From NCBI GenBank assembly GCA_965645245.1, contig OZ287069.1, positions 2,790,001 to 2,854,000 of the forward strand: a stretch of 64,000 nucleotides of DNA, in the 5' to 3' direction. A program made the position numbers and the translations under genes. Position 1 is the stretch's first letter. Each line of letters starts with the position of its first letter. The notes beneath the pieces are model-generated. The model saw only the letters and a program-made list of their open reading frames with translations, was not told where the DNA came from and did no database searches. Positions 39,124 to 40,747 of this stretch are shown piece after piece. This stretch comes from Massalongia carnosa (Eukaryota).

Positions 39124-40747
39124 TTATATCACTAGAGTACCACCCAAAAATATTGCGCAGGCAGCGGTGAGAATCCAATTAATCTTCCTCACCTCTGCCG
39201 TAGCCATGGTGGCCGAATTTTTTTTAGCGTTTACGTGTGATCCAGCGCTTTCGGCAAGCACCGGCACTTTGGTCGGTGATGGTGTGTTAGGCACGAGTGC
39301 TGGGGAGTTGGTGACAAGAAAGCCCTGCTCATTGTAGTGTTTCACGGCTGTGGCCGTCGCGCCTACTTGGATGATGGTGATGGGAAACCCCTTTTCGTCA
39401 TACTGTGTAATGGCCTCAGGACCACCGTCCACCAAAGGCAAGTCCTGTGGCGATACTGATGGTGACGAGGTATATAAAGCGGGTGGGGATGTTGGCTGCG
39501 AGATATGTGATCAGCAATACGTCTCCACGAAGCGCCCAAAGCACAAGAACACGAGGGTAGCTCACTCACAGGCGCCGCGCTTGGCGGGAGGACTTTGCCA
39601 TTGTTGGTGACGGTCCATCCACTTGGTAGACCCGGGTACGTCGTGACCGTGGCTACCGGGCTTTTTTGAAGAGTGGTTGCTACCCAAGGATAGATATCGG
39701 GCGTAACATATGTGGAACTTGAGTCGCGGTGAGTGCCCTCGAATGGCATTGGCGCGCTGTTCAAAGCGGTCACCACGGGCGGAGCGACGCCTGCTGGAGC
39801 TACGACCTTGCCTCCGCCCGAGTTCACCTTGCCTCCTACCACTTGAATGGAGTCCCAAGTCCCCGTGGTGCCAGAATAGGTGTATTGTGTGCCGGTCGAA
39901 TAATCCGTTACAGAAACGGACTTTACGTGCATCGAGTACGGTCCGTTGGCATAATTGGTTGGGCCGCCCGCCCAAGCTGGAGCCGAGGGAGAATAGGTTA
40001 GCGGCTTTCAGTGGGGATGAGATACCCGAAGGGACTTACCAATTGTCCCTGGAGCGTTCGCTGAGTCACCTCCGCTCCAGGCTCCCATTTTAAGCATCAT
40101 GGGTGTTTGCGGGTATTGGCCTCCAGCAGCCTCGGGAGTCAAGGTACGAACGGTGGTTCCATCAATTTGCCAAGAAATTGCATTTGCTGTCCAATCAATA
40201 GAATATTTCTTGAAGGATCCTTGATTGCTTGGGTCTGGGTGGAACGCCCCCCGATTGTAGGTTGTGGTCTGTCCCTTTCCAAAATAGTTGCTTTGGACTT
40301 GGTTGTTGTCTGCTCCAAGCCACTCCCAATCGATTTCGTCAAGGTCATCTGACTGTAGCACAGCGCTGCTCACGATGCCCGGCCCCGAGGCTGGCTTCAC
40401 CACGAAGTCAACATGACCGAACATGATGTACCATTTCGACGTGAGTTGGGGTGAGTCGCCGGATTTAGCGACAGTAAAGGAGGCCCCGTTGGAGTCGTAT
40501 GAGGGACTCCCTTGCGAAGTGAAAGAGTCAGAAGCTCCAGAGGTGAAGTCGATCGTAACGGATTTTCCGAGTGCGGTATCCGGTGGACAGCTACCTATCA
40601 TGGGATCAGCCAGTTTCTGTGTGATATGCTTATCGGTACAAGCAACTTACCGCTCGTGAGAGGATTGCAGTTACTGTAGGTCTGGGCTACCACTTGTATA
40701 GCTAGAACACCAAATATTACGGCTGAGGACAAAGTGGAGGATCTCAT
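39124..40747 (-). CDS. GH16 Crh/Crf chitin-glucan transglycosylase, GPI-anchored
   Basis: Signal peptide followed by QTYSNCNPL, YIMFG, DDLDEIDWEWLG (catalytic EIDxE), NYFGKG, YPQTPM and a Ser/Thr/Pro stalk with a hydrophobic C-terminus. An alternative short end at 39416 is described under findings. Confidence 0.93.

Follow-up and report, generated by a model that had tools for sequence, protein, structure and literature searches.

We describe here a pair of tandem 5' splice sites in the last intron of a gene for a Crh-type transglycosylase in the fungus Massalongia carnosa, and we consider it likely that they form a conserved and selected alternative splice-site pair of filamentous ascomycetes. 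The two donors lie 4 nt apart and are joined to one acceptor, which is the GYNNGY geometry, and the choice between them would place the last exon in one of two reading frames, each closing with a hydrophobic, anchor-like tail. Comparison of orthologous sequences indicates that this exon is dual-coding with both of its frames under constraint, and the combination of a splice switch with double constraint is well supported and very probably correct. The gene lies on the minus strand of the window, the whole 64,000-nt stretch that was analysed (contig OZ287069.1, positions 2,790,001 to 2,854,000), in a genome of 52 Mb, and its features are collected in Table 1.

Table 1. Features of the Crh-type gene, in window coordinates
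Feature	Position	Strand	Basis
Exon 1: ATG and predicted signal peptide	40651..40747	-	translation; signal peptide by eye
Intron 1: GTAAGT, branch-like site at 40610, TAG	40595..40650	-	motifs and frame
Exon 2: GH16 catalytic domain, EIDWE at 40337-40323	40040..40594	-	PF00722, 6IBU
Intron 2: splits the GTIxWxGG motif	39977..40039	-	sequence
Exon 3 (ends at 39566 with donor 2): GH16 end, S/T/P linker, PxGWTVxxxGKVxPP motif	39570..39976	-	sequence, relatives
Candidate omega site of the short isoform, S-A-A, in exon 3	39581-39573	-	
Tandem 5' splice sites GTGAGTGAG	39561..39569	-	sequence; kept in orthologous loci
Donor 1 (GTGAGT), long form	39569	-	
Donor 2 (GTGAGC), short form	39565	-	
Intron 3: 74 nt (donor 1) or 70 nt (donor 2)	39496..39569	-	sequence
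Branch-like GCTGAT of intron 3	39515	-	
Acceptor CAG, common to both donors	39498-39496	-	
Dual-coding part of exon 4: one frame encodes the hydrophobic short tail, the second an S/P/T-rich stalk	39416..39495	-	
Exon 4, long frame, 123 aa: stalk, repeats, KKNSA, hydrophobic end	39124..39495	-	
YDxxGF-type repeat 1 (YDEKGFP), long frame	39402-39382	-	
YDxxGF-type repeat 2 (YNEQGFL), long frame	39336-39316	-	
KKNSA, long frame	39225-39211	-	

The donor, acceptor and stop coordinates proposed in an earlier sequence-only reading of this DNA were all confirmed on the minus strand. Use of donor 2 extends exon 3 by GTGA and gives a product of 380 aa that stops at 39416 and has a KD15 of 2.04 at its hydrophobic end, in agreement with the short GPI-type-looking tail claimed in that reading. 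The 123-aa extension with its duplicated YDEKGFP / YNEQGFL motif was likewise found as proposed, in a donor 1 product of 476 aa with its stop at 39124 and a KD15 of 2.21 at the hydrophobic end. Retention of intron 3 yields 421 aa without a hydrophobic end (KD15 0.73), and retention was rejected as a third functional isoform in this genome for that reason; in a few relatives (P0111, P0100, and P0329) a retained intron is in frame and reaches the short tail. We also note that intron 1 ends in two TAG trinucleotides 4 nt apart (40597-40591, minus strand), and use of the downstream one would cause an early frameshift. The gene is flanked directly downstream by a cytochrome P450 gene (PF00067, ~38700-36700, minus strand), and ~730 nt upstream by a divergent class I W/Y tRNA synthetase gene (PF00579, from 41481, plus strand) that is probably TyrRS. 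Six Teloschistales gene models (P0021, P0025, P0026, P0028, P0034, and P0038) fuse GH16 with P450, which points to conserved synteny and mis-annotation.

By its sequence marks the product is a Crh-type GH16 enzyme, for which chitin-glucan transglycosylase activity is predicted. A Pfam profile search of the exon 2 domain matches PF00722 (E 4.8e-43), the best PDB match is A. fumigatus Crf1 (6IBU, E 3.8e-57), and the two Crh motifs E-I-D-[WFL]-E and GTIxWxGG, as given in the relevant passages of PMC7389268, are both present, the second assembled across intron 2. The encoded protein begins with a hydrophobic stretch, read by eye, and resembles the Crh/Crf enzymes (GH16_18/19; S. cerevisiae Crh1/Crh2 and A. 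fumigatus Crh1-5) in having a putative signal peptide, a GH16 domain, an S/T-rich linker, and a hydrophobic C-terminus. The nearest database protein among the best 120 matches is from Peltigera leucophlebia, at 89% over exon 2. Judged by the C-terminal motif, the closest named relative is A. fumigatus Crh4 of 450 aa, the 'Crh-like protein 4' that is named CRH4 in passages of PMC3627985. That protein (P0417) is a long form, and comparison of its stalk with Aspergillus short tails shows two-frame compatibility at 17-22 of 23 positions. Aspergillus long tails differ from that of this gene in having no YDxxGF repeats. A GH16 tree of 38 rows requires five label changes, one of them forced by supported branches, and gives no proof of Crh4 orthology; the grouping with Crh4, which rests on the common exon-3 region and on two-frame compatibility, is provisional. 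Motif and length give no A. niger Crh name for this gene.

Several further observations concern the family. AFUA_6G08510 is crf1 in the passages concerned of PMC2721682 but CRH4 in those of PMC3627985. A second A. fumigatus model (P0416, 400 aa) skips 50 residues of the long stalk of P0417 by means of a different acceptor, and in several models from Aspergillus and Penicillium the intron is translated in frame and leads on to the long tail. In the M. carnosa genome one other Crh-like paralogue was found (L129, G000:C4:338001-346000, 35% identity), with a seemingly single open last exon that closes with a GPI-like tail. Exon 3 used alone as a query against longer proteins found no homologue and has no Pfam family, the YDxxGF repeat region gave no usable match in the ESM Atlas, and Baseplate_J was rejected for the long tail because its Pfam score is sub-threshold.

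The sequence-only reading had asked whether the donors and both frames persist in orthologs, and they do. A pattern scan of metagenome contigs, whose pattern favours close relatives of the motif, returned at least 110 stretches; with the M. carnosa locus these make at least 111, of which 85 passed an upstream-motif filter, 26 being dropped as unrelated, and 63 are distinct. Among the matches listed, the distinct loci comprise 54 with the intron, six without an intron here, and three spliced copies, and 50 of the 54 intron-bearing loci carry tandem donors, with GTNAGT placed directly after PPS[SA]A[PT]-type codons and with a second donor that reads GT[AG]AG in 47 of the 50, GTACG in two, and GTATG in one. 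The remaining four are L013, L018, L062, and L100, the last of which is incomplete. Our acceptor rule scored 48 of the 50 tandem loci, missing L048 and L053, in which both frames were seen by eye. The same intron architecture (59-83 nt) recurs in all 48 scored loci among these matches, and the base at donor position +3 is G in 24, C in 17, A in five, and T in two of 48, a variability expected of the third base of a Val codon in the short form. The arrangement recurs in several classes of filamentous ascomycetes. As a control, 262 kb of the same genome contain 29 intron-like GTNAGT elements, and RAG follows next only at this site; it follows none of the 28 control introns, and the raw background is 14 of 346.

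In at least seven complete loci that lack tandem donors, a short hydrophobic tail persists and the long frame is broken; five of these loci are intron-free and two have a single donor. The no-intron or single-donor lineages with the short tail only are L037, L046, L088, L090, L106, L111 (incomplete), L018, and L062, and the position of L046 in a 149-kb contig shows it to be genomic. At L013 the first donor is absent and the retained intron is in frame with the short hydrophobic tail, while a long frame with two repeats is still found downstream. In the Teloschistaceae, the long models P0011, P0017, and P0295 join the last exon ~15 codons earlier than the short models P0018 and P0294, and that exon is two-frame compatible at 24 of 25 positions; from these protein models, the donors may have moved apart there with both products kept.

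Constraint on the short frame is seen in the tail itself, which among the matches listed is 22-29 aa long with a KD13 of at least 1.5 in 48 of 48 scored loci, and in all 29 loci that remain after collapsing at 85% identity. When the long protein was held fixed and its codons were resampled synonymously 2000 times per locus, such a tail appeared in 7.2% of cases, which corresponds to 2.1 of 29 loci expected. Such a tail was seen in 0 of 131 windows further downstream in the same frame and, in the third frame, in one of 48 loci, again among the matches listed. A comparison of wobble positions in 16 disjoint pairs of loci showed that third positions of the long frame vary at 91 of 403 overlap codons (22.6%), against 213 of 520 (41%) downstream (P 4e-9) and 296 of 850 (34.8%) upstream (P 1e-5), with P values that are optimistic in that the loci are related and kinship is ignored. 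The short frame's own wobble positions differ at only 60 of 403 (14.9%), so that the long frame constrains the short one too.

The long frame is conserved as well. Among the matches listed, 47 of 48 loci show no stop in it over 59 codons or more, and 47 of 48 have at least one YDxxGF-type repeat, 28 having two. L091 has a stop at codon 7 with the remainder intact, which is either a variant or an assembly error, and in L017, L058, and L070 the long frame ends without a hydrophobic tail. In each of seven pairs of long and short proteins, every position of the short tail, including the stop, is encodable by the DNA of the long stalk, compared with a mean of 39% and a maximum of 82% two-frame compatibility in 40 mismatched pairs. 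The earlier proposal that both frames look functional thus gains support, since both are conserved and the resampling and wobble results place both under constraint.

Both donors are used in relatives. L074 matches the genomic locus L024 at 100% over 2057 nt except for a 62-nt intron that has been removed at donor 1, L043 corresponds in the same way to L021 and L082, and in L007, a 95% match to L104, the intron has been cut out at donor 2; we infer that these three are cDNA contigs. The organism of L074 shows both forms, the long one in L074 and the short one in P0305, whose tail is identical to the donor-2 product of L009. P0305 and P0304 have the same first 347 residues, after which P0305 carries exactly the donor-2 tail; P0304 is the unspliced read-through of genomic contigs, which points to an intron-blind gene caller. 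At least four clusters of proteins from Logan or JGI hold long and short proteins with N-terminal parts 99.7-100% identical. Three of these consist of protein records from short contigs, namely P0073/P0302 (343/343 identical), P0101/P0306 (342/342), and P0338/P0344 (333/333), the last identical also to a Cenococcum geophilum model before the junction. In this last cluster the long form is on 57 contigs and the short form on one, and the short form may be minor there. Pairs of gene models, as distinct from transcripts, are found in Lasallia pustulata (385 and 483 aa, 351/351 identical before the junction) and in Aspergillus wentii (371 and 452 aa, 348/348). The best 120 protein matches show three kinds of ending, namely a YDxxGF-type long end in 47 (by a crude rule), a VSK/VSE read-through in 36, and others in 37, the last a mix of short hydrophobic tails, other read-throughs, fusions, and fragments. 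By analogy with these relatives, both junctions would be used in M. carnosa as well. A search for sequencing runs listed no RNA of this organism, and the four runs aligned with the gene are contigs that retain its introns and show no splice joints; some of them (X1-X3) may be the source of this DNA, and they bear neither way on expression.

The proposed mechanism is as follows. The spliceosome would cut at either GT and join it to the one AG, as it does in relatives, and the 4-nt shift would decide in which frame the last exon is read. As that exon contains both stops, neither mRNA should be a target of junction-dependent NMD. With donor 2, the protein would end in a hydrophobic tail 27 residues after the shared PPSAAP; with donor 1, it would continue through ~95-150 residues of S/T/A/P stalk, with one or two YDxxGF hairpins, to a second hydrophobic tail. 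Both tails would most likely be GPI-addition signals, with the omega site of the short form situated in the shared exon. The predicted outcome is a single catalytic domain tethered at two lengths, either close to the membrane or reaching further into the wall.

The change in stalk length put forward in the sequence-only reading was confirmed and amounts to ~96 residues between the isoforms. Among the matches listed, 29 of 30 complete long exons encode a stalk of 94-155 residues, with a median of 28% S/T, and on these alignments it is the stalk that constitutes the conserved difference between the isoforms. The same reading had also invoked a dibasic motif before the putative omega site as a sorting rule, which did not hold up: among the matches listed the motif is present in one of 30 complete long tails, that of this genome, and dibasic-omega sorting was rejected as a conserved difference. 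An AlphaFold model of the long form of a relative (P0001) folds the repeats as hairpins (pLDDT ~65-75) amid disorder, and the GWTVxxxGKV motif of the shared exon (39620-39588, minus strand) is modelled as a hairpin resembling them; a module of three hairpins is possible. A further reading, which we hold tentatively and at somewhat short of even chances, is that of an old regulated switch, present in several classes, that would place the same enzyme in two compartments, with the YDxxGF and GWTVxxxGKV hairpins as a glycan-contact module. The short form would then be membrane-proximal, through GPI or a transmembrane segment, and the long-stalk form would carry the hairpin module.

The nature of the short tail bears on how the two products would be anchored. 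GPI status was judged by a sequence pattern (omega triplet, spacer, and uncharged hydrophobic end), in strict and relaxed versions. The long tail of this gene passes the strict version, and the short tail, which has an Arg near its end, fails the strict and passes the relaxed one. Among the matches listed, long tails of relatives pass in 19 (strict) and 23 (relaxed) of 30, and short tails in 16 (strict) and 48 (relaxed) of 48, the last being a weak test. The alternative that both isoforms are real and the short one keeps its tail, uncleaved, as a single-pass membrane anchor, so that the switch picks between transmembrane and GPI attachment, seems to us unlikely, if worth taking seriously. It draws on the charged residues in the last five positions, present in 29 of 48 short tails versus five of 30 long tails among the matches listed, on short-tail endings rich in W, F, and R, and on the prediction of one TM helix and no GPI for A. 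niger CrhF and CrhG in passages of PMC7389268. However, among the matches listed the uncharged run is short (median 17 residues), a small-residue triplet lies 23-31 residues from the end at nearly all loci, and the relaxed GPI pattern is passed throughout, weak as that test is. In the relevant passages of Fang et al. 2019 (PMC6458159), the PredGPI-positive Crh proteins are AfCrh1, 2, and 5, with AfCrh4 absent from them.

Two other explanations would deny that a switch is maintained. If the second donor were splicing noise and the genetic code alone accounted for the short tail, only the long form would matter; the GTRAGT consensus itself contains a second GT, a stalk rich in Ser(TCN) and Pro becomes hydrophobic when its frame is shifted, the passages of PMC4267661 on mammalian GYNNGY splicing describe it as mostly noise, and one cluster has the long form on 57 contigs and the short on one. 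This explanation is nevertheless largely refuted and very improbable, given that resampling of the same stalks yields the tail at 7% and it is observed in 29 of 29 loci among the matches listed, that RAG at +7..+9 is conserved here and absent from all 28 controls, that long-frame wobble is suppressed in the overlap, that the short tail survives alone where the tandem donor has been lost, and that short spliced products exist (L007, P0302, P0305, P0306, P0309, P0096, and P0344). It could also be that each species uses one donor, with long-only and short-only users and the other frame a slowly decaying relic, perhaps in M. carnosa too, and public gene models with one form per assembly and the short-only lineages fit such a division. 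We think it improbable in view of the nearly identical long and short products (N-terminal parts 99.7-100% identical) in at least four clusters, and of both frames being intact in 29 diverged loci among the matches listed as well as in this gene.

To our knowledge, conserved protein-coding alternative splicing has rarely been demonstrated in fungi, and 4-nt tandem donors have mostly been deemed noise; the present case combines constraint on both frames with spliced products of both kinds. The Crh family has so far been studied by deletion in Aspergillus and Neurospora on the assumption of one protein per gene. The two isoforms account for orthologues annotated at ~370 or ~470 aa, a difference seen even inside one species, as in Lasallia pustulata and Aspergillus wentii. 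They offer a natural pair, identical up to the anchor, in which tether length and omega-site context can be set against the site of action of a wall enzyme, and the switch is easily testable in that substituting a single base at either donor fixes which isoform is made. If the interpretation is correct, overlapping-frame coding would select the anchor of a protein and its reach in the fungal wall, and the annotation of a single form per genome in databases would explain why the switch has gone unnoticed.

The literature consulted, which includes four Crh papers (PMC6458159, PMC7389268, PMC3627985, and PMC8777122) and a minority of subscription journals, contains no account of the switch; the passages of those four treat each Crh gene as encoding one protein and do not contain 'splic'. 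A precedent, in passages of PMC2721682 and PMC6443627, is A. fumigatus crf1 (Crh5), which like this gene is a Crh gene giving transcripts with differing C-termini (Crf1, Crf2, and Asp f9). By the same passages the variants of crf1, a different paralogue, lose the GPI signal, and Crf2 is weakly expressed and lacks recognised splice sites. In the present gene, by contrast, two canonical donors in tandem give rise to a pair of anchor-like tails read from overlapping frames, an arrangement that is conserved between fungal classes. The tandem donors treated by Wang et al. 2014 (PMC4267661) share the GYNNGY geometry and the frameshift outcome, and the passages on mammalian examples report mostly noise or NMD coupling, with 72-74% introducing early stops; in contrast, the M. 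carnosa pair is in the last intron, both frames are constrained, and both products have a targeting-type tail. Crh enzymes and GYNNGY donors are already known, and what would be new is a conserved dual-coding last exon with two anchor-like tails. The animal proteins NCAM and CD58 occur as GPI and transmembrane isoforms through alternative splicing of separate exons. They resemble this gene in presenting one ectodomain on alternative membrane anchors, but where they use separate exons, the Crh-type gene would use one exon read in two frames.
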